In this document: positions 615-8,219 of the stretch, one piece after another | Layout: each line of letters opens with the position of its first letter | Position numbering within the stretch: the first letter of the stretch is position 1 | Assembly: GCF_051097895.1 (NCBI RefSeq) | Contig: NZ_CP142525.1 | Span: forward strand, 30,001 to 62,000 | Length of the DNA stretch: 32,000 nucleotides | Direction: 5' to 3' | Source: Psychrobacter sp. HD31 | Lineage (GTDB): Bacteria; Pseudomonadota; Gammaproteobacteria; Pseudomonadales; Moraxellaceae | Made by a program: the position numbers and the translations under genes | Notes under the pieces: generated by a model | Database searches by the model: none | Seen by the model: only the letters and a program-made list of their open reading frames with translations | What the model was told of the DNA's origin: nothing

Positions 615-2111
615 ATGTCAGATGTAAAAACAGTCAAACAGCTTATCAATGGTCAGTTTGTCGAGTCCAACACCAGCGAGTGGATTGACCTAACCAACCC
701 AGCCAACCAAGAGCTGATTGCCAAAGTACCCCAAACCACCCAAGACGAAATTAATGAAGCGGTGGCGTGTGCCAAAGAGGCATTTAAAACGTGGCGTAAA
801 ACCGCTGTCACTAAACGTGCAGGGATTTTCTTAAAGTATCAACAGCTGATTAATGAACATATGGATGAATTGGCTGAGATGTTGACCGAAGAACAAGGCA
901 AAACCATTGCCGATGCTAGGGGCGATGTATTCCGTGGCTTGCAAGTGGTGGAGCATGCAGCAGGGATTGGCAATTTACAACAGGGTGATTTTGTTGAAAA
1001 TGTGGCAACGGGCGTCGATACTTATAGCATTTGGCAACCGCTGGGCGTTTGTGCTGGTATTACGCCGTTTAACTTCCCTGCGATGATTCCACTCTGGATG
1101 TACCCAATGGCGATTGCCACTGGTAATACTTTTGTCTTGAAGCCCTCTGAGCAGAATCCAATGGTGACCATGCGTTTGATTGAGCTTGCCATTGAAGCAG
1201 GTGTGCCAGAAGGCGTACTGAATGTGGTACACGGCGGTAAGCCAACGGTCGATGCGATTTGTGACCACCCTGATATTAAGGCAGTGTCGTTTGTTGGTTC
1301 GACGGCAGTTGGTACGCATGTTTATAACCGTTCAAATGCCGCTGGCAAGCGTGTGCAGTGCATGATGGGAGCAAAAAACCATGCGGTCATTCTACCTGAC
1401 GCCAATAAAGAACAAACTCTAAACCAGTTAGCTGGGGCAGCATTCGGTGCGGCAGGACAGCGTTGTATGGCGCTGTCTGTGGTTGTGCTGGTTGGTCAAG
1501 CAAAAGACTGGGTAGAAGATATTAAAACCAAGGCAGCAAGCTTAGTGGTTGCTGCTGGTAAAGATGACAAAGACTTAGGTCCATTGATTTCACAAAAAGC
1601 GAAGGAACGCTGTGAAAAACTGATTCAACAAGGCGTGGACGAAGGGGCTGAGCTATTGCTAGACGGTCGTGGTGTGGTGGTTGAAGGCTCAGAAAATGGT
1701 AACTTCGTTGGTCCTACTATTTTAAATAATGTCACCAAAGAGATGACCTGCTATACACAAGAAATCTTTGGTCCTGTGTTATGTATCATGTATGTCGATA
1801 GCTTGGATGATGCGATTGAGCTGGTTAATGCCAATCCAAACGGCAATGGTACGGCCATCTTTACTCAATCTGGGGCAGCCGCTCATAAATTCCAGTCGGA
1901 TATTGATGTTGGTCAAGTAGGCATTAACTTGCCAATTCCAGTACCTCTACCAATGTTCTCATTCTCTGGCTCTCGTGCCAGTAAGCTGGGTGATTTAGGA
2001 CCTTATGGTAAACAAGCGGTTCAATTCTATACGCAAACCAAGACGGTCACGGCTCGTTGGTTTGATGATGAAGCGAGTAAGGGTAAAGTAAATACCACGA
2101 TTTCGATGTAA
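615..2111 (+). CDS. mmsA: Methylmalonate-semialdehyde dehydrogenase (CoA-acylating)
   Basis: 498 aa aldehyde dehydrogenase with [10 protein letters not shown] and the catalytic-Cys context GQRCMALS. The AAGGAA RBS lies 8 nt upstream of the ATG. It sits in a valine-catabolism gene context. Confidence 0.93.
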
Positions 2112-2247
2112 TATTTTACCCAAAAACTTAATCTACCCTATATTATGAGGGGTCAAAGTTGCTCAAGGTACTTCATGTATATTTTCGCTTCTTTTCCTCG
2201 GTATATTAATTTTTGGATTTGATATAGATATTTTATAAAATAAACTT

Positions 2248-2273
2248 GTGCGACTTGATAGGTTAAGTCGCAC
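2248..2273. other. Perfect 9-bp stem hairpin in the long mmsA-downstream spacer
   Basis: GTGCGACTT (2248-2256) and AAGTCGCAC (2265-2273) flank an 8-nt loop. There is no U-tract, so it is not a canonical terminator. Confidence 0.5.
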
Positions 2274-2399
2274 GGATTCAGTCTTATCATGTCATTAGGG
2301 ATTTTCGTGGAGATTTTTAATGAGGTGGTGAGGTTTTATTAAATTTGGTACCAGTGGTGGTACCCGAACAGATACGCAGTCTTTTAATGACTACATCAT

Positions 2400-2475
2400 A
2401 AACCCTTTCTAACTCTTAAAGAAAGTGGAAAACTGTACCCCATACTTTAACAAGTTTAGTTGTCAACAACAAAGC
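2400..2475 (+). repeat. Decayed direct copy of the DUF559 cassette's right inverted repeat plus ~40 bp of its downstream flank
   Basis: A hand alignment with 2997-3075 shows shared blocks AAACCC, CTAAC, AAAGTGGA, AACTG, (T/C)ACCCC, TA.TTT and AACAAAG in the same order, with a few small gaps. Confidence 0.6.
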
Positions 2476-2492
2476 TAGACTTTCGAGCGGAC

Positions 2493-2527
2493 GTTCCTCC
2501 ACTTTTCAAGGGGAGGCTAGGAGGGGT
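2493..2527 (+). repeat. Left inverted repeat of the DUF559 cassette
   Basis: The sequence is GTTCCTCCACTTTTCAAGGGGAGGCTAGGAGGGGT. It also forms an internal hairpin, CCTCCACTT-TTC-AAGGGGAGG (9-bp stem, 1 mismatch). Confidence 0.85.
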
Positions 2528-2595
2528 TGACGAAGTTGGTTAGAAACAAAACTAGCCAGCCTCAAGAAACCTCCCAAAAAAACAGGAAAACCAAA

Positions 2596-2988
2596 ATGAT
2601 TGACAAAGTCTTTAATAAAAAAGACCAAAAATCAAAACGCAAACAACTAAGAAACAACGCCACCAGTCCAGAACAAATATTATGGCAATATCTGAAAGGA
2701 AAACAACTTGGCGTAAAATTTAGAAGACAATCTGGAATTGATGAATACATTGTAGATTTCTTCTCACCAGAAATTAAACTGGCTATCGAAATAGATGGTG
2801 AAAGTCATTTTAATGATGAAGCAAAACAATATGATGAACTTAGAACAGAATTTATCAACTCACTAAATATAGAAGTCATCAGATTTACAAATAAAGATGT
2901 AACTCAAAATATAATGGGCGTTTGTCAGGCAATAAGAGCAGTTATTAGCAGAAAACTGTTAGAACAGCAAATTCAGCTTAATGAATAA
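2596..2988 (+). CDS. DUF559 domain protein (Vsr/restriction-endonuclease-like fold)
   Basis: The motifs are family-typical: ATSPEQILWQYLKG..LGVKFRRQ, YIVDFF, LAIEIDGESH, YDELRTEF and VIRFTNKDV. I prefer the ATG at 2596 (AGGAAA RBS ~9 nt upstream) over the ORF-track TTG at 2527, which lies inside the left IR. Confidence 0.8.
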   Translation: MIDKVFNKKDQKSKRKQLRNNATSPEQILWQYLKGKQLGVKFRRQSGIDEYIVDFFSPEIKLAIEIDGESHFNDEAKQYDELRTEFINSLNIEVIRFTNKDVTQNIMGVCQAIRAVISRKLLEQQIQLNE

Positions 2989-2998
2989 GCTAACAAAA

Positions 2999-3033
2999 AC
3001 CCCTCCTAACCTCCCCTTGAAAAGTGGAGGAAC
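2999..3033 (+). repeat. Right inverted repeat of the DUF559 cassette
   Basis: The sequence is ACCCCTCCTAACCTCCCCTTGAAAAGTGGAGGAAC, the reverse complement of 2493-2527 except for one position (C2517 vs T). Confidence 0.85.
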
Positions 3034-3143
3034 TGGCACCCCGTATTTTGCGTTGTTCAGTTTTTAAAAACAAAGATTGACTATCTTACTTACTAAAGAT
3101 AAAAAATGTAAACCATTTAAACCCACAACACAAGGATACCCCA

Positions 3144-4310
3144 ATGAATTTTTCTCTAAACGAAGACCAGCAAGCCTTTGCTGAACTTGCCAGCAACTTC
3201 GCCAGCAAATCAATGGCACCCTTTGCAGATGAATGGGACAAAACGGCTCACTTCCCAGTCGAGATGTTTAAAGAAGCAGGTGAACTTGGTTTCCTCGGCT
3301 TATACACCAACGAAGAAGTTGGTGGTATGGGCTTATCACGCTTAGATTCCTCCATCATCTTTGAAAAGCTTGCCTACGGTGACACCTCAGCAGCTGCCTT
3401 TATGACCATTCACAACATGGTCGCTTGGATGATTGGTGAATTTGCCAAACCAGAAGTTGCCGAAGCGTGGATTCCAGACATGATGACAGGTGATAAGCTT
3501 GGCAGTTATTGCCTAACGGAACCAAATGCAGGCTCAGACGCAGGCTCACTGACCACCAAAGCGGTGAAATCAGACGATGGCAAACACTACTTGCTCACGG
3601 GGCAAAAAATGTTTATCTCTGGTGCTGGAGCGACCGACGTACTGGTGGTCATGGCTCGCACAGGTGAAGACGGCGCAAAAGGCATTTCTGCATTTGTTGT
3701 CGACGCCAAAGCAGAAGGCATCACCTATGGCAAAAATGAACATAAAATGGGCTGGAAAAACCAACCCACTGCCGCCGTACATTTTAAAGACGTGAAAGTA
3801 CCTGCCAAAAACTTACTGGGCGAAGAAGGACAAGGCTTTACCTTTGCCATGAAGGGCTTAGACGGTGGGCGTATCAACATCGCCACTTGTGCAGTGGGGA
3901 CGGCTCAAGCCGCTCTGGAACGTGCCGTACAATATGTACAGGAACGTAGCCAGTTTGGACGTACACTGGATAAATTCCAAAACGTGCAGTTCAAACTTGC
4001 CGATATGCTAACCGAACTCACTGCCGCACGGCAAATGGTCAGACTGGCAGCATACCACCTAGACACAGGCAGTCCAGACGCCAGTAGCTATTGTGCAATG
4101 GCAAAACGATTAGCGACCGACCTCAGCTTTAAAGTGGCGAATGAAGCCCTACAGCTGCACGGTGGTTATGGCTATCTGCAAGAATACCCACTCGAACGCC
4201 ATGTGCGTGACTTGCGTGTCCACCAAATCCTTGAAGGCACCAATGAAGTGATGCGACTCATCGTCTCTCGTAAAATGATGGATATGGATACTTTAAAAAG
4301 AATGCAGTAA
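3144..4310 (+). CDS. Acyl-CoA dehydrogenase (isobutyryl-CoA dehydrogenase by context)
   Basis: 388 aa with YCLTEPNAGSDA and the C-terminal LHGGYGYLQEYPLERHVRDLRVHQILEGTNE. The AAGGA RBS lies 7 nt upstream. Substrate assignment is from operon context only. Confidence 0.88.
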   Translation: MNFSLNEDQQAFAELASNFASKSMAPFADEWDKTAHFPVEMFKEAGELGFLGLYTNEEVGGMGLSRLDSSIIFEKLAYGDTSAAAFMTIHNMVAWMIGEFAKPEVAEAWIPDMMTGDKLGSYCLTEPNAGSDAGSLTTKAVKSDDGKHYLLTGQKMFISGAGATDVLVVMARTGEDGAKGISAFVVDAKAEGITYGKNEHKMGWKNQPTAAVHFKDVKVPAKNLLGEEGQGFTFAMKGLDGGRINIATCAVGTAQAALERAVQYVQERSQFGRTLDKFQNVQFKLADMLTELTAARQMVRLAAYHLDTGSPDASSYCAMAKRLATDLSFKVANEALQLHGGYGYLQEYPLERHVRDLRVHQILEGTNEVMRLIVSRKMMDMDTLKRMQ

Positions 4311-4336
4311 GGCGTGGGCTTTACCCATCTTAAGCT

Positions 4337-4559
4337 AACAATTTTAAATATTTTGAAGCGGAAACCTGCTTTTCGCTTGTATCTTGCTACCCGATGGCGT
4401 TGCTCTCTATGGCTAAGTGCGTTTCAGACTTTGAGCAATCACCCTTAGCCATGTTCGCAATAGCCATCGGTCACACAAGGTGAGGAGGGAAATAGCGAAG
4501 CACTGCTTCGCCCCGACGCAAGGGAAAATTTGTAATTTTCCGCTTCAATCAGGGCTAAG
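4337..4559 (+). repeat. Structured intergenic repeat, copy A (MITE-like, no ORF)
   Basis: It is homologous to 8051-8219. It has perfect 12-bp terminal inverted repeats TTGAAGCGGAAA (4353-4364) and TTTCCGCTTCAA (4537-4548), and a central ~80-nt hairpin at 4391-4470. Confidence 0.75.
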
Positions 4560-4664
4560 TTCAACACCTCGTATTTTTTTGAATGTGTTTGGCTGTTTGA
4601 GGTAGGATTTTTTAAAGGTGCTTAAAAAGCACTCTAAAACTAACATCTTATAATAGGGATATTT

Positions 4665-5063
4665 ATGAAAAACCAAATCATCACATCTTTGACTTTCCAA
4701 GATGGAAATGCTGAAAACGCTATGAACTTTTATGTTGAGGTATTTGCAAACGCTCATATCATTAATGTGAACAGATGGGGTGAAAATGCACCTGTTGCAG
4801 AAGGTAAAATCATGCAAGCCACCTTTGAGATTAATGGCACTATCTTTATGTGTAGTGATAGCCCAGCGATACATAATTGGGATTTTAGCCCAGCTGTTTC
4901 AAATTACCTAGAATGTGATAATGAAGCTGAAATAGCTACTTTATTCTCGAAACTTTCTGAAAATGGCACTGTTACAATGCCATTAGACAACTATGGATTT
5001 AGTCAAAAATTTGCTTGGGTACTAGACCAATTTGGGGTGTCTTGGCAATTAAATTTGGCTTAA
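4665..5063 (+). CDS. VOC-superfamily protein, PhnB-like (3-demethylubiquinone-9 3-methyltransferase-domain family)
   Basis: 132 aa with ITSLTFQDGNAENAMNFYVEVF...ATFEINGTIFMCSDSP...DQFGVSWQLN, the pattern I associate with PhnB/PF06983 proteins. The AGGGA RBS lies 6 nt upstream. It is AT-richer than the flanking operon genes. Confidence 0.65.
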   Translation: MKNQIITSLTFQDGNAENAMNFYVEVFANAHIINVNRWGENAPVAEGKIMQATFEINGTIFMCSDSPAIHNWDFSPAVSNYLECDNEAEIATLFSKLSENGTVTMPLDNYGFSQKFAWVLDQFGVSWQLNLA

Positions 5064-5154
5064 ATATTTCTACAATAAATTATGTTTTTAAAGAGTTGAA
5101 CTGAGTATTAACGCACCAATAAAATAACATTAATCAAACCAAAAGGAAAACAAC

Positions 5155-5940: not shown

Positions 5941-6420
5941 ATGGCATTGATTCATGAGTTTACAACAGCCAAACAAGCTGATATTCAAAAAATCTTAGAG
6001 AATGTCAACTTACTAAGGGATGCAAGTGTTGTATCCCCAGTGGTTGGTATTCATGATGATTTTATCTTGTATTTTGCAGATTCGATGAAGTGGATAGAAA
6101 CTACTAATCCTAGAAAAAAGCCGGAAGAGCATATACCCCATCAGAGCTTATGCTACTATGGTCTTACTCTATTTCTACCTAATCAAGTGACGCAGTTTAA
6201 ACGTGTTATTGAAGCTTGGTATAGTATGTTTAGCCTAGCACCAGATGAGTTTATTATAACTGGTAGTTGGACAGAAGTTGTCGGTGAAGAAAATAGTGGT
6301 AAATATGACAAAATTAAAGCAATCAAAGCTGAAATTTTAGAAACATTATCAGAGCTAATTCAACTTTGTGTAGACGTGGAAAAAGATGACAGTTTGTGTT
6401 TATTCCATTGGGGAATTTGA
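5941..6420 (+). CDS. Hypothetical protein (no family recognised)
   Basis: 159-aa ORF starting 6 nt after the hydratase stop, with GGAAGG ~12 nt upstream. It is AT-richer than its neighbours, and I recognise no motifs. Confidence 0.5.
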   Translation: MALIHEFTTAKQADIQKILENVNLLRDASVVSPVVGIHDDFILYFADSMKWIETTNPRKKPEEHIPHQSLCYYGLTLFLPNQVTQFKRVIEAWYSMFSLAPDEFIITGSWTEVVGEENSGKYDKIKAIKAEILETLSELIQLCVDVEKDDSLCLFHWGI

Positions 6421-6842: not shown

Positions 6843-8039
6843 ATGAAGGAATCAACCGAAACCAACCAATCACAACCCATACTTATAGACACCATCGCCA
6901 CCGCTAGCGGTCATGCCATCGGCACACTGACACTCAACGACCCAAAGGCTCTGAATGCCCTGAGTGTCGACATGTGTCAGATGATAAGCAAGCAACTCAG
7001 CAACTGGCAAAATGACGATAACATTGTTGCCATTCTGCTTAAAGGCAGTGGTGACAAAGCATTCTGCGCAGGAGGCAATATCCGCAAACTGTATGAAAGC
7101 ATGCTGGATAATCCACCCATGCCCAACCCTTACGCCGAAGAGTTCTTCTCCAGCGAATACAGCCTATTCCGCCAAATGCACTTCTATAACAAACCCATTG
7201 TCCTATGGGCGAACGGCATCGTCATGGGCGGTGGCATGGGATTAATGGCAATGTGTAGCCACAGAGTGGTTACCGAAACCACCCGTTTTGCCATGCCAGA
7301 AATCACCATCGGACTCTACCCAGATGCCACAGGCAGTTGGTTGCTACAACGCTTCCCTGCCAAGCTTGGGCTATTCCTGGGATTAACAGGTGCTAACTGC
7401 AATGGAGCAGATGCCTTAATTGGCAACATGGCTGAGTTTGCTGTTACCAGTGAGCAATATGATGACATGGTACACGCCTTGAGTAGTGCCGATTGGGCAA
7501 ACAGTGCTGACTTACATGACACCGCCAGCCAAGCCCTCGCCACCGTCCACCATACTGAGCAACTTGCCGAAAGCAACCTTATCAACCACTGGCAAGCCCT
7601 ACAAGCCATTGTCAACGCAGGTGACATTCATGCCATTGACCAAGTCTTACAAAATGCCGAATTAGCCGAAAAATACAAAGATGACAAATGGATGAGCCGA
7701 GCCATCAGCACCTATCAGCATGGTTGCCCTGTGACTGCTGGATTGACTTTTGAGGCATTTAAACGAGCCAAAAAACTGTCACTTGAGCAAATCCTATATA
7801 TGGAAATGAACCTATCACTGCATTGTGCCAACAACCCAGACTTTAGAGAAGGTGTGCGAGCCTTGCTTATCGACAAAGACCGCACCCCAAAATGGAGTAA
7901 AACTCTTGCCGAATGTGGTGGTAAAGAAGGGCGTTCCTATATCGACTCGCACTTTAACTCACCCTATGATGAAGGGAAGCATCCCTTTGAAAACTGGTTA
8001 GATAATGGTAGCAAATCAGCAGACTTGGTGAACATTTAA
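6843..8039 (+). CDS. 3-hydroxyisobutyryl-CoA hydrolase (ECH_2 crotonase subfamily)
   Basis: 398 aa with FCAGGNI and NGIVMGGGMGL, plus the long C-terminal extension typical of HIBYL-CoA hydrolases. The AAGGAAA RBS is present. Confidence 0.88.
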   Translation: MKESTETNQSQPILIDTIATASGHAIGTLTLNDPKALNALSVDMCQMISKQLSNWQNDDNIVAILLKGSGDKAFCAGGNIRKLYESMLDNPPMPNPYAEEFFSSEYSLFRQMHFYNKPIVLWANGIVMGGGMGLMAMCSHRVVTETTRFAMPEITIGLYPDATGSWLLQRFPAKLGLFLGLTGANCNGADALIGNMAEFAVTSEQYDDMVHALSSADWANSADLHDTASQALATVHHTEQLAESNLINHWQALQAIVNAGDIHAIDQVLQNAELAEKYKDDKWMSRAISTYQHGCPVTAGLTFEAFKRAKKLSLEQILYMEMNLSLHCANNPDFREGVRALLIDKDRTPKWSKTLAECGGKEGRSYIDSHFNSPYDEGKHPFENWLDNGSKSADLVNI

Positions 8040-8050
8040 ACCGTTTTTTA

Positions 8051-8219
8051 AACAGTTATTGAGTTTTTGGAGCGGAAACCTGCCATCCGCTATTATCTTG
8101 CTTGCTGATAGCGTGTGTTCTATGTGCCTGAGTGCGTTCCAGACTTTGAGCGACCATCCTCAACCACAGACCACATCACCATCAGCTTCACAAGGATAAC
8201 CGCTACTGTCAGGGCTAAA
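8051..8219 (+). repeat. Structured intergenic repeat, copy B (shorter; degenerate right end)
   Basis: It is homologous to 4337-4559 and shares the same start (TTGGAGCGGAAACCTGC) and end (TCAGGGCTAA). The central hairpin at 8105-8185 has an apical 26 nt that is 22/26 identical to copy A. It lacks ~55 bp that are present in copy A. Confidence 0.75.

Follow-up and report, generated by a model that had tools for sequence, protein, structure and literature searches.

In Psychrobacter sp. HD31, the stretch of DNA analysed here (32,000 nucleotides; the window) contains an aldehyde dehydrogenase gene of the methylmalonate-semialdehyde dehydrogenase type (mmsA-type; 615–2111, + strand) and, downstream of it, an acyl-CoA dehydrogenase gene (3144–4310, + strand), both assigned as context. 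The spacer between them harbors a DUF559 gene enclosed by two inverted arms. A repeat search placed the arms at 2493–2528 (+ strand) and 2998–3033 (− strand); they are 36 nt long, complementary at 35 of 36 positions (97%) and 469 nt apart. Their sole difference, C2517 (CTAGG) versus T (TTAGG), is the one that a first-pass annotation had reported together with the near-perfect inverted repeat itself. The 35-mer arm matches just these two sites in the 32 kb window, and none of 100 shuffles contained a match. Between them the arms enclose a single ORF, that of DUF559 (2527/2596–2988), which, as also described earlier, has the same orientation as both neighbors and is AT-rich, with a GC content of 0.29–0.33 versus 0.45–0.52 in the flanking genes. 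The arm edges of the window and of the loci L001 and L002 show no target-site duplication, and no Y1_Tnp/HUH transposase, RAYT or any other transposase was found, in agreement with the first-pass annotation. No recombinase or invertase gene was found beside the cassette, an Rfam search of 2100–3300 (E ≤ 1) returned no relevant family, and nothing convincing was found as a promoter or terminator of the cassette itself.

The gene (2596–2988, + strand) is assigned by profile, alignment and model to the Vsr-like PD-(D/E)XK nucleases, and its product matches PF04480 with an E value of 6.8e-29 (score 100.4 bits, cut-off 20.6; profile positions 2–108 of 109). The NCBI annotation is the 130-residue form with an ATG start, and an in-frame TTG upstream, at 2527, would yield 153 residues. 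The conserved core of the window protein comprises K41FRRQ, D54F, E65xD67GxxH71, D80 and R83. Asp54, Glu65, Asp67 and His71 are invariant in an alignment of 40 sequences and are present in the window protein (VDF...IEIDGESH); by analogy with Vsr and I-Bth0305I, these four residues would be of the catalytic type. An AF2 model of the protein (pLDDT 90.6, pTM 0.84) has a restriction-endonuclease-like α/β core fold, and Foldseek matched this model to 3hrl (E 7e-7, TM 0.82), to 3r3p (I-Bth0305I; E 1e-3, TM 0.78), to PvuRts1I and to Vsr (1cw0/1vsr). A phmmer comparison of the window protein with 3hrl gave an E value of 1.8e-15. The earlier statement that the nuclease-type motifs look intact is thus borne out. 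The ORF ends at TAA 2986–2988. In its closest relatives, L001 and L002, this codon is CAA and the ORF extends to the TAA of the module (3007–3009). The window ORF therefore looks as though it has acquired a nonsense codon seven codons ahead of the ancestral stop, and the former C-terminal tail (GCT AAC AAA AAC CCC TCC TAA; 2989–3009, + strand) is now untranslated.

In each arm a hairpin is followed, after a linker of 3 nt, by a purine segment in mirror order to the hairpin's purine strand. The arms read CCTCCACTT-TTC-AAGGGGAGG-CTA/TTA-GGAGGGG; the mirror is perfect, and the hairpin has one Watson–Crick mismatch. The module finder, which allowed one hairpin mismatch, and the mirror rule resolve the left arm, in G-orientation, into GTT, the Y stem CCTCCACTT (2496–2504), the loop TTC, the R stem AAGGGGAGG (2508–2516), the linker CTA (2517–2519), the third (mirror) strand GGAGGGG (2520–2526) and TT. 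The right arm, detected by both the repeat search and the module finder, is the same module inverted and consists, on the + strand, of AA, the third strand CCCCTCC (3000–3006), the linker TAA (3007–3009), CCTCCCCTT (3010–3018), the loop GAA, AAGTGGAGG (3022–3030) and AAC. The third strands of both arms point toward the DUF559 gene. Possible outer extensions lie at 2464–2492, which is weakly similar to the outer flank of other copies and has an uncertain boundary, and at 3034–3062 (TGGCACCCCGTATTTTG...), which was placed by alignment with other copies and resembles the sequence ACTG[GT]C...ACAT/GTAT that flanks BoxC copies of E. coli and the L001 arms.

A purine-motif triple helix can form from one DNA strand through G.G:C, A.A:T or T.A:T triplets. 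By their sequence architecture, the arms are members of a described group of intrastrand triplex motifs, the BoxC / PIT / TMECO class (Bachellier et al. 1990s; Hoyne & Maher 2000; Holder et al. 2015, PMC4666352). The first-pass annotation had overlooked the purine mirror repeat after the hairpin. The class is defined by a C-rich stem, a loop of 3–6 nt, a complementary G-rich stem, a loop of ~3 nt and then another G-rich stem mirroring the first one, and G.G, A.A or A.T pairing is permitted in the mirror (PMC4666352). The window arms do not fit the TMECO consensus, CCCTCNCCC N3-6 GGGNGAGGG N3 GGGNGAGGG; with stems of the type CCTCCCC/GGGGAGG instead of CCCTCNCCC/GGGNGAGGG, 7–9 nt in length, each can be classed as a relative and not as a strict TMECO. 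Aligned to E. coli BoxC copies, they share the layout of these copies and resemble them in the outer flank. Within the class, triplex formation in vitro has been shown by CD/NMR for TMECO only, and earlier work reviewed in the same study reports that RNA does not form triplexes of the purine motif (PMC4666352). The mirror purine segment thus points to a structure at the level of DNA. The hairpins nested in the arms, which had been noted before, are indeed present, but in the window copy they contain an A.G / C.T mismatch, and their DNA energies of −4.3 to −6.5 kcal/mol are no better than those of shuffles (triplexes lie outside the ViennaRNA model). Because the hairpin-breaking change is common to both arms, complementarity between the arms exceeds that within each arm, and because both hairpins are imperfect, triplex formation by the window copy is doubtful.

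The module is not confined to this locus. The 19-mer CCCCTCCTARCCTCCCCTT was found in at least 120 stretches from many phyla, nearly all of the listed ones continuing as a hairpin, a feature that was no part of the search pattern, and it is multi-copy in other genomes, for example those of Prevotellaceae KH2P17, Thiothrix and Aetokthonos. In the fetched loci, the third segment exactly mirrors the purine stem in 192 of 259 informative hairpins, a direct-repeat reading fits 12, and the covariation of mirror and stem extends to more than 25 stem types. Within the mirror, A stands opposite A (163 positions) or T (70) and G opposite G (1169), and the linker is mostly 3 nt long. Two other structures were considered and discarded. 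A G-quadruplex of the G-rich arm leaves the A/T mirror positions in the third segment unexplained. A pyrimidine-motif triplex, formed with the C strand or with RNA, is incompatible with the loci, as stem A faces third-segment T at 30% of positions and a T in the third segment of the G strand would require an A on the C strand.

Repeat and DUF559 gene are associated strongly and reciprocally across many bacterial phyla. In a count restricted to loci found via the protein alone, module density is 2.57 per kb within 200 nt of a DUF559 ORF, compared to 0.05 per kb elsewhere on these contigs and 0 in shuffled sequence, a ~47-fold enrichment at ≤200 nt from DUF559 genes. The finder, with one hairpin mismatch allowed, detected at least one module at 81 of 98 DUF559 ORFs. 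Conversely, among the matches listed for the 19-mer, DUF559 is the sole recurrent gene family beside the modules and no other recurrent family adjoins them; most of the modules among these matches are solo and remote from any DUF559 gene. The arrangement around the gene is also biased. An 'up +, down −' module pair, in which the third strands face the gene, is present in 18 of 29 loci (expected 25%; p 2.6e-5), and the upstream module has the preferred orientation in 45 of 58 cases (p 3e-5), with a different module orientation in a minority of loci. The module linker serves as the stop of the ORF in 6 of 37. Protein similarity follows the module sequence type only weakly (43.7 versus 42.4% identity, permutation p 0.013), which suggests that recognition, if any, is of shape rather than of sequence. 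A nuclease that co-evolves with the stem sequence of its module was considered, and the very small size of this effect makes sequence-specific stem recognition unlikely. Carriage by plasmids or phages was likewise considered and proved rare, with 37 of 72,556 plasmid records (mostly chromids) and 2 of 50,697 phage records; among 2.9 million viral contigs there were 2 module matches.

The distribution of the cassette is patchy. P0002, a DUF559 protein of 70% identity, is encoded next to adh_short, and P0003, of 65% identity, is encoded between QRPTase and NAD synthase genes; both have almost the same arms as the window, and between cassettes in different contexts the arms are better conserved than the protein. 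That the arms are kept around DUF559 genes in other contexts indicates that they travel with the gene, and this agrees with the earlier view of the unit as a discrete cassette. The comparison of the mmsA–acd spacer in sister strains, which the first-pass annotation had called for, showed that the cassette is absent from the three nearest relatives (AcdH 93, 83 and 81% identical), whose spacers contain DUF2834 or EamA or are empty, and lack G/C-run modules. These spacers cannot be aligned to that of the window, so that they show absence and not exact insertion boundaries. The cassette is not ancestral in this spacer, and the spacer is a hot spot for small-gene turnover. Neither of the two findings that would have told against the earlier proposal was made: the arms occur in other contexts and the cassette is missing from this spacer in relatives, and the fold and conserved residues of the nuclease are intact.

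A presence/absence difference at a single site was found in V. campbellii. In strain L213, the folD–nupC spacer has the arrangement units-X-DUF559-X, and in the sister strains (L215/L219) the same spacer has no more than a pair of modules, ahead of which stand the final 14 nt of the ORF. This difference begins and ends within the modules, with homologous sequence on both sides. Remnants of the ORF 3′ end thus lie beside cargo-less modules in Vibrio, and they do so in E. coli as well; no target-site duplication was present at the polymorphic sites of either. The two modules that flank the gene in V. campbellii and in L002 are of different sequence types.

In E. coli K-12, the DUF559 gene ycjD (b1289) terminates in a degenerate module, and within ~170 nt downstream lie a partial copy of the ycjD 3′ end and a full BoxC/TMECO. 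Given 23 TMECOs in 4.6 Mb, a BoxC would occur near ycjD by chance at ~0.3%. The ycjD site is the position of the eefRABCD operon in other E. coli, and phylogroups D/E/F reportedly lack ycjD yet contain 6–13 TMECOs (PMC12817139). Published BoxC counts by phylogroup are 13–30 for A/B1/C, 0–2 for B2 and 6–13 for D/E/F, and a survey of 5,426 genomes with a chimeric query, relating ycjD to BoxC number, agrees with them in direction; as both datasets follow phylogroup and are confounded by phylogeny, this correlation is a lead and not evidence. In E. coli, variation is concentrated at TMECO loci (PMC4666352). At fimH–gntP, a comparison of filled and empty sites of a solo BoxC showed 12 nt replaced by 81 nt without a target-site duplication, a replacement that fits recombination and also simple instability and is uninformative on clean insertion.

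Our preferred reading is that 2493–3033, possibly ~2464–3062, is a horizontally acquired selfish nuclease-plus-repeat cassette that acts on DNA, and we put its probability at about one half. As to the mechanism, we infer that the DUF559 nuclease would recognise the folded or extruded repeat in DNA, or a break or stall caused by the repeat, and would cut the DNA there. Recombinational repair could then use the repeats as portable homology, and the gene, the repeats or both would be copied elsewhere, either to other repeat-bearing sites or to new ones. Such a partnership would be like that of RAYT and REP or of a homing endonuclease and its target, except that the nuclease would have another fold and the repeat would be one that forms a triplex. 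The Psychrobacter copy looks like a single, slightly decayed insertion, with the Watson–Crick mismatch in both hairpins and the nonsense codon. A broader and more tentative proposal is that the DUF559 nucleases, YcjD included, are the missing partner enzymes of the BoxC/PIT/TMECO repeats, forming a selfish system of many phyla in which a Vsr-fold nuclease may act on the hairpin-plus-third-strand and may drive the spread of the repeat and of its own gene, as well as turnover and local instability. Such a system would parallel RAYT and REP while differing from them in mechanism.

One alternative places the function in RNA: in a read-through operon transcript the arms would pair as a ~35-bp dsRNA, the RNase III-type substrate that the first-pass annotation had envisaged, and RNase III would cut this stem and so excise or insulate the DUF559 message. 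The stem is indeed predicted here, as the arms are paired over their whole length in the RNA MFE structure of 2470–3060 (−164 kcal/mol, z −9.7; 0 of 100 shuffles reached this value). In addition, the change common to both arms breaks the local hairpins and keeps the pairing between arms, the cassette is co-oriented within an operon and lacks a convincing promoter or terminator itself, and the arms contain stop codons on both strands and an SD-like GGAGG. The layout recalls the ORF-containing intervening sequences of 23S rRNA that are excised by RNase III, which also place a small ORF inside a long stem within a longer transcript. Unlike these, the cassette lies outside rRNA, and its arms are DNA repeats of the triplex type, which are found as solo copies too. 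Moreover, the covarying purine mirror repeat has no role in a Watson–Crick RNA stem, and the purine-motif triplex that fits the mirror is reportedly not formed in RNA (PMC4666352). The terminal stem is not conserved across the class either: most modules are solo among the matches listed, and in V. campbellii and L002 the flanking modules differ in type, so that no long stem can form between them. Earlier tests of PIT elements detected neither promoter nor terminator activity, and RNA polymerase was unaffected by them (summarised in PMC4666352). We therefore do not favor the RNase III idea and judge an RNA-level device to be improbable; the long dsRNA stem in read-through transcripts is probably a side effect and not the function of the repeat.

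Also unlikely is the absence of any functional link. In that case triplex motifs would be fragile or recombinogenic spots at which incoming foreign DNA lands or persists, DUF559 would be a common orphan gene of the repair or restriction type that is there by accident, and the inverted arms would be two repeats flanking it by chance. The variability of TMECO loci in E. coli (PMC4666352) and of the mmsA–acd spacer in relatives, the weak covariation of protein and module type, the many modules without a nearby DUF559 gene among the matches listed and the messy comparison of filled and empty solo BoxC sites are all compatible with coincidence. Against it stand the specificity of the association in both directions, with its local enrichment in the same contigs and with DUF559 as the only recurrent neighbor family among the matches listed, the significant bias in module orientation relative to the gene, the frequent stop of the ORF in the module linker codon, the 3′-end remnants at cargo-less modules in Vibrio and E. 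coli, and the better conservation of the arms than of the protein across contexts. An invertible segment, in which the 36-bp repeats would flip the DUF559 gene relative to the operon promoter and make its expression phase-variable, would account for the presence of exactly one gene between inverted repeats. We consider it very improbable, as no recombinase or invertase gene lies beside the cassette, a single orientation was seen at the window locus, the mirror repeat and the solo modules are left unexplained, and the published enrichment may stem from DUF559 domains inside R-M loci.

The selfish-cassette reading bears on repeats that have been catalogued for ~30 years, that form triplexes in vitro and that mark unstable regions in enterobacteria and cyanobacteria. 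According to the main study of BoxC/PIT/TMECO, a mobility-type gene has never been found in their vicinity (PMC4666352). The pairing of the repeats with a single small family of nucleases, ycjD included, is specific, conserved and widespread; it provides a concrete candidate enzyme and may explain how BoxC-type repeats spread. If functional, the pairing would join REP/RAYT as a second class of selfish elements composed of a nuclease and a structured repeat, and would provide a biological role for an intramolecular DNA triple helix and a function for DUF559. The meaning of the window alone is modest: a foreign, slightly decayed cassette in the spacer of a valine-catabolism operon.

The first-pass annotation knew of no function or mobility mechanism for DUF559 units bounded by inverted repeats; our literature search likewise found none described, while the arms themselves proved to be of a known class. 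Like BoxC/PIT/TMECO elements, the arms are intergenic modules, often in inverted pairs, in locally variable DNA. Unlike them, the copy in the window has one Watson–Crick mismatch per hairpin, and the arms bracket a nuclease gene where published work reports no associated gene; two copies were seen in the 32 kb covered. The resemblance to REP or IS200/IS605 that had been proposed holds for the architecture: in REP/RAYT ('REPtron') and IS200/IS605 elements, too, one nuclease-type gene is flanked by inverted hairpin repeats, copies are solo or clustered between genes, target-site duplications are missing, and structure-forming single-stranded DNA ends are implied. It does not extend to the enzyme, which is a Vsr-like PD-(D/E)XK protein and not an HUH/Y1 transposase, and REPs lack the mirror purine segment and its triplex potential. 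With a TIR transposon or MITE the cassette shares inverted repeats, without the target-site duplication or the DDE-type transposase.

The homing endonucleases of the EDxHD/Vsr fold, such as I-Bth0305I (PDB 3R3P), have a close catalytic fold, and homing endonuclease genes, free-standing ones included, are likewise small, selfish and patchy, with presence or absence at one site as seen in V. campbellii. The cassette differs from them in lying outside introns and inteins, and its presumed target is a dispersed structured repeat and not a unique gene sequence. YcjD and N. gonorrhoeae NGO0050 (PDB 3HRL), to which no functions are assigned, belong to the same Pfam family and fold, with ~35–38% identity to the window protein. 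At ycjD, a BoxC/TMECO and a degenerate module accompany the gene as in the cassette, here on the 3′ side alone and without the symmetrical inverted bracket.

Our analysis of HD31 shows a DUF559 nuclease gene of foreign origin that lies between inverted repeats of the triplex type. The two arms (2493-2528 and 2998-3033) were found by repeat search to be 36 nt each, 469 nt apart and complementary at 35 of 36 positions, which bears out the near-perfect inverted repeat claimed by the first-pass annotation; their sole difference is C2517 (CTAGG) versus T (TTAGG). Within the 32 kb window, the 35-mer and the inner 21-mer of the arms occur at two places only, and in shuffles at none. ORF and profile searches also upheld what had been said of the interior and the setting. 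The sole ORF inside the arms is the DUF559 gene on the plus strand (2596-2988, or 2527-2988 from an upstream TTG), which matches PF04480 at an E value of 6.8e-29 and, more weakly, MTES_1575, PvuRts1I-N and Vsr. It is flanked in the same orientation by the mmsA-type aldehyde dehydrogenase and acyl-CoA dehydrogenase genes and is indeed AT-rich, with a GC content of 0.29-0.33 versus 0.45-0.52 for the adjoining genes.

The window protein has an exact counterpart among the annotated proteins of Psychrobacter sp. HD31, an "endonuclease domain-containing protein", and stands alone in its own 90% cluster. It contains every residue that is invariant in an alignment of 40 sequences (K41-F-R-R-Q, D54-F, E65-x-D67-G-x-x-H71, D80 and R83) and matches the solved DUF559 protein 3HRL by sequence with an E value of 1.8e-15. 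The AlphaFold model built from the same alignment has a pLDDT of 90.6 and a pTM of 0.84, and in structure comparison it matched best to 3HRL, the homing endonuclease I-Bth0305I (catalytic domain), PvuRts1I and Vsr. Given the alignment, the 3HRL match and the model matches, the protein is predicted to have a nuclease fold with its conserved residues in place, in keeping with the earlier view that the motifs are intact. Compared with the two closest relatives, the window ORF has been shortened by a CAA-to-TAA change seven codons ahead of the ancestral stop (2986-3009); in those relatives the ORF ends (...ANKNPS*) at a TAA within the right arm, in the linker of the right-arm module.

We scanned one genome per species for the 19-mer CCCCTCCTARCCTCCCCTT and obtained at least 120 stretches from many phyla. 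Nearly every match among those listed is continued by loop-AAGGGGAGG, which is absent from the pattern, and since only ~13 of the 120 listed have a DUF559 ORF within 200 nt, most of the listed matches are solo intergenic modules. On the G-rich strand a module consists, in order, of a Y stem, a loop, an R stem, a 3-nt linker (mostly TTA or CTA) and a third segment, which is the R stem mirrored, that is, reversed without complementing. Of 259 perfect Y-loop-R hairpins from the retrieved loci, all with an informative purine stem and a G-rich stretch after it, 192 show the exact mirror versus 12 under a direct-repeat reading, and the rule spans more than 25 stem types (such as GGGGGAG to GAGGGGG, GGGGAGA to AGAGGGG and GGAGAGGG to GGGTGAGG). 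In the mirror G always faces G (1169 positions), while A faces A (163) or T (70); a purine-motif (reverse-Hoogsteen) triple helix is built from just these pairings.

This repeat class is already known as BoxC, PIT elements or TMECO "intrastrand triplex motifs". The published TMECO pattern is CCCTCNCCC N3-6 GGGNGAGGG N3 GGGNGAGGG (Holder et al. 2015, PMC4666352); the motif folds as a triplex in vitro, is intergenic, differs strongly in copy number among strains and marks variable regions, and the authors report that no mobility-type gene, whether for a transposase, an integrase or another such protein, ever turned up in its vicinity (PMC4666352). According to earlier work summarised there, RNA does not adopt purine-motif triplexes, and PIT elements are devoid of promoter or terminator activity. 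Aligned with E. coli BoxC copies, the window arms have their parts in the same order and an outer flank like theirs. Both arms fit the design: the mirror is perfect, and each hairpin has one Watson-Crick mismatch. Because the hairpin-breaking substitution is common to both arms, it implies either concerted evolution of the arms or selection on the pairing between them. The cassette has the look of a single import that has decayed slightly.

The association of modules with DUF559 is strong, reciprocal and oriented. In 80 metagenomic loci gathered via the protein alone, strict modules have a density of 2.57 per kb up to 200 nt from the DUF559 ORF versus 0.05 per kb elsewhere on the same contigs, and none occurs in shuffles of these loci. 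When a single hairpin mismatch is tolerated, at least one module accompanies 81 of 98 DUF559 ORFs; conversely, DUF559 is the sole family that recurs across genomes beside 19-mer modules in the 120 genome loci listed. Agreement is far closer between the arms of a single gene than between arms from different loci (arm-arm score of at least 40 in 27/73 pairs versus 2/73 across loci), and module sequence type is tracked only marginally by protein similarity. In 45 of 58 loci (p 3e-5) the third strand of the nearest upstream module points toward the gene, and both third strands do so, as in the window, in 18 of 29 two-sided loci versus 25% expected (p 2.6e-5). The TAA/TAG linker of the module serves as the ORF stop codon in 6/37 loci. 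In our judgement both architecture and association have good support; the unit is rare on plasmids and phages.

The nearest homologues of the window protein, 70% and 65% identical, lie in other neighbourhoods, upstream of a short-chain dehydrogenase gene and between the QRPTase and NAD synthase genes. Since almost identical arms bracket both, the arms are better conserved than the protein, and they move together with the gene. The closer homologue (L001, 610-650) is probably inactive because it lacks eight residues of the conserved RFTN region; this locus has perfect hairpins and a 52-nt inverted repeat despite that loss. Distant homologues occur in Methylococcaceae, Thiothrix, Fusobacteriaceae, Patescibacteria, Bacteroidota, Marinomonas, Vibrio, Ignavibacteria and others, a patchy distribution. 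In Prevotellaceae bacterium KH2P17 (L016, L024, L046, L059, L112), the same 19-mer module lies within a longer repeat with both flanks conserved; it occurs on five contigs or more, with tandem copies spaced 330-370 nt apart.

In Vibrio campbellii the folD-nupC spacer holds three repeat units, X, the DUF559 gene and X again. Here X stands for a 185-nt direct repeat in which ~90 nt separate a C-oriented module from a G-oriented one. In sister strains (FolD 98% identical) the same spacer has a compact module pair only, and the 14 nt before this pair match the final codons of the DUF559 ORF exactly. Thus the gene is present or absent at one site among close relatives, and the cargo-less pair keeps a piece of its 3' end. 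The boundaries of the difference fall inside modules, with no target duplication at this site. In some ten further loci, long direct repeats surround the DUF559 ORF. Pairs of modules of the window's type that lack cargo (Thiothrix namsaraevi, L048, 53-141; also L038, L050, L110, L111, L116) are arranged tail-to-tail, hairpins inside and third strands outside, the layout that a circular or tandem form of the cassette would have at its junction. Same-stem-type modules with 33-37-nt hairpin-loop insertions form four tandem ~146-nt units directly 3' of the DUF559 gene in Vibrio maerlii (L004, 640-1340) and are also seen in L030, L105 and L121.

The E. coli K-12 DUF559 gene ycjD, which stands where other phylogroups have the eefRABCD operon (PMC12817139), has its 3' end inside a degenerate module. 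Past it lie a partial duplicate of that 3' end and, ~170 nt downstream, a full BoxC/TMECO; this partial copy, of the last ~60 nt of ycjD, lies in the ycjD-fabI interval (L208, 5250-5440) and is followed by a degenerate module (…GAAAGGGTTAGGGGC) before the BoxC. The duplicate resembles the ORF-tail remnants beside Vibrio modules. In published counts, phylogroups A/B1/C, the carriers of ycjD, have 13-30 TMECOs, B2 has 0-2 and D/E/F have 6-13, and a chimeric ycjD+BoxC query of 5,426 genomes pointed in the same direction; the link is only suggestive because both datasets follow phylogeny. At a solo E. coli BoxC, the filled allele differs from the empty one by replacement of 12 nt with 81 nt, without duplication.

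Module and DUF559 gene thus form a widespread, oriented and polymorphic unit. We infer, as a moderately likely mechanism, that the nuclease targets the repeat in DNA, in its folded or extruded form, and that recombinational repair, with the repeats as portable homology, would spread the gene and/or the repeats, akin to RAYT with REP sequences or to a homing endonuclease with its target. The first-pass annotation had pointed to a dsRNA stem between the arms in a read-through transcript. Such a stem is predicted in the window and may affect the operon, yet it leaves the mirror segment unexplained and is not a conserved feature of the module class: the modules adjoining the V. campbellii gene differ in type, so that locus has no long inter-arm stem. 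Both the DUF559 fold family and BoxC/PIT/TMECO repeats were already known, and the main repeat paper explicitly reports no associated gene (PMC4666352). We found no paper in the open-access literature connecting the two, although an earlier description is possible.

In the three lineages nearest to HD31 (acyl-CoA dehydrogenase 93, 83 and 81% identical), the mmsA-acyl-CoA dehydrogenase spacer holds a DUF2834 gene, an EamA gene or nothing, and no G/C-run modules. The cassette is absent from all three and is thus not ancestral at this site; the spacers differ too much for an exact empty site to be drawn. Small insertions make the valine-catabolism operon a mosaic (window 2112-2492, 4311-5154 and 5941-6420; L124, L126, L127). 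They include a PF06983/glyoxalase-like ORF (4665-5063) between the acyl-CoA dehydrogenase and enoyl-CoA hydratase genes and a 159-aa ORF without a Pfam match (5941-6420), at the equivalent position of which L127 has an unannotated 163-aa ORF. Two more small palindromes lie upstream of the cassette in the spacer (2248-2273 and 2343-2366), one being GTGCGACTTGATAGGTTAAGTCGCAC, terminator-like on the minus strand, and the other GGTACCAGTGGTGGTACC. Finally, a ~145-nt direct repeat (4337-4480 and 8051-8195, copies 70-75% identical), which begins ~10-30 nt past the stops of the acyl-CoA dehydrogenase gene and of ORF 6843-8039, is a second intergenic repeat family in the window, unrelated to the modules.
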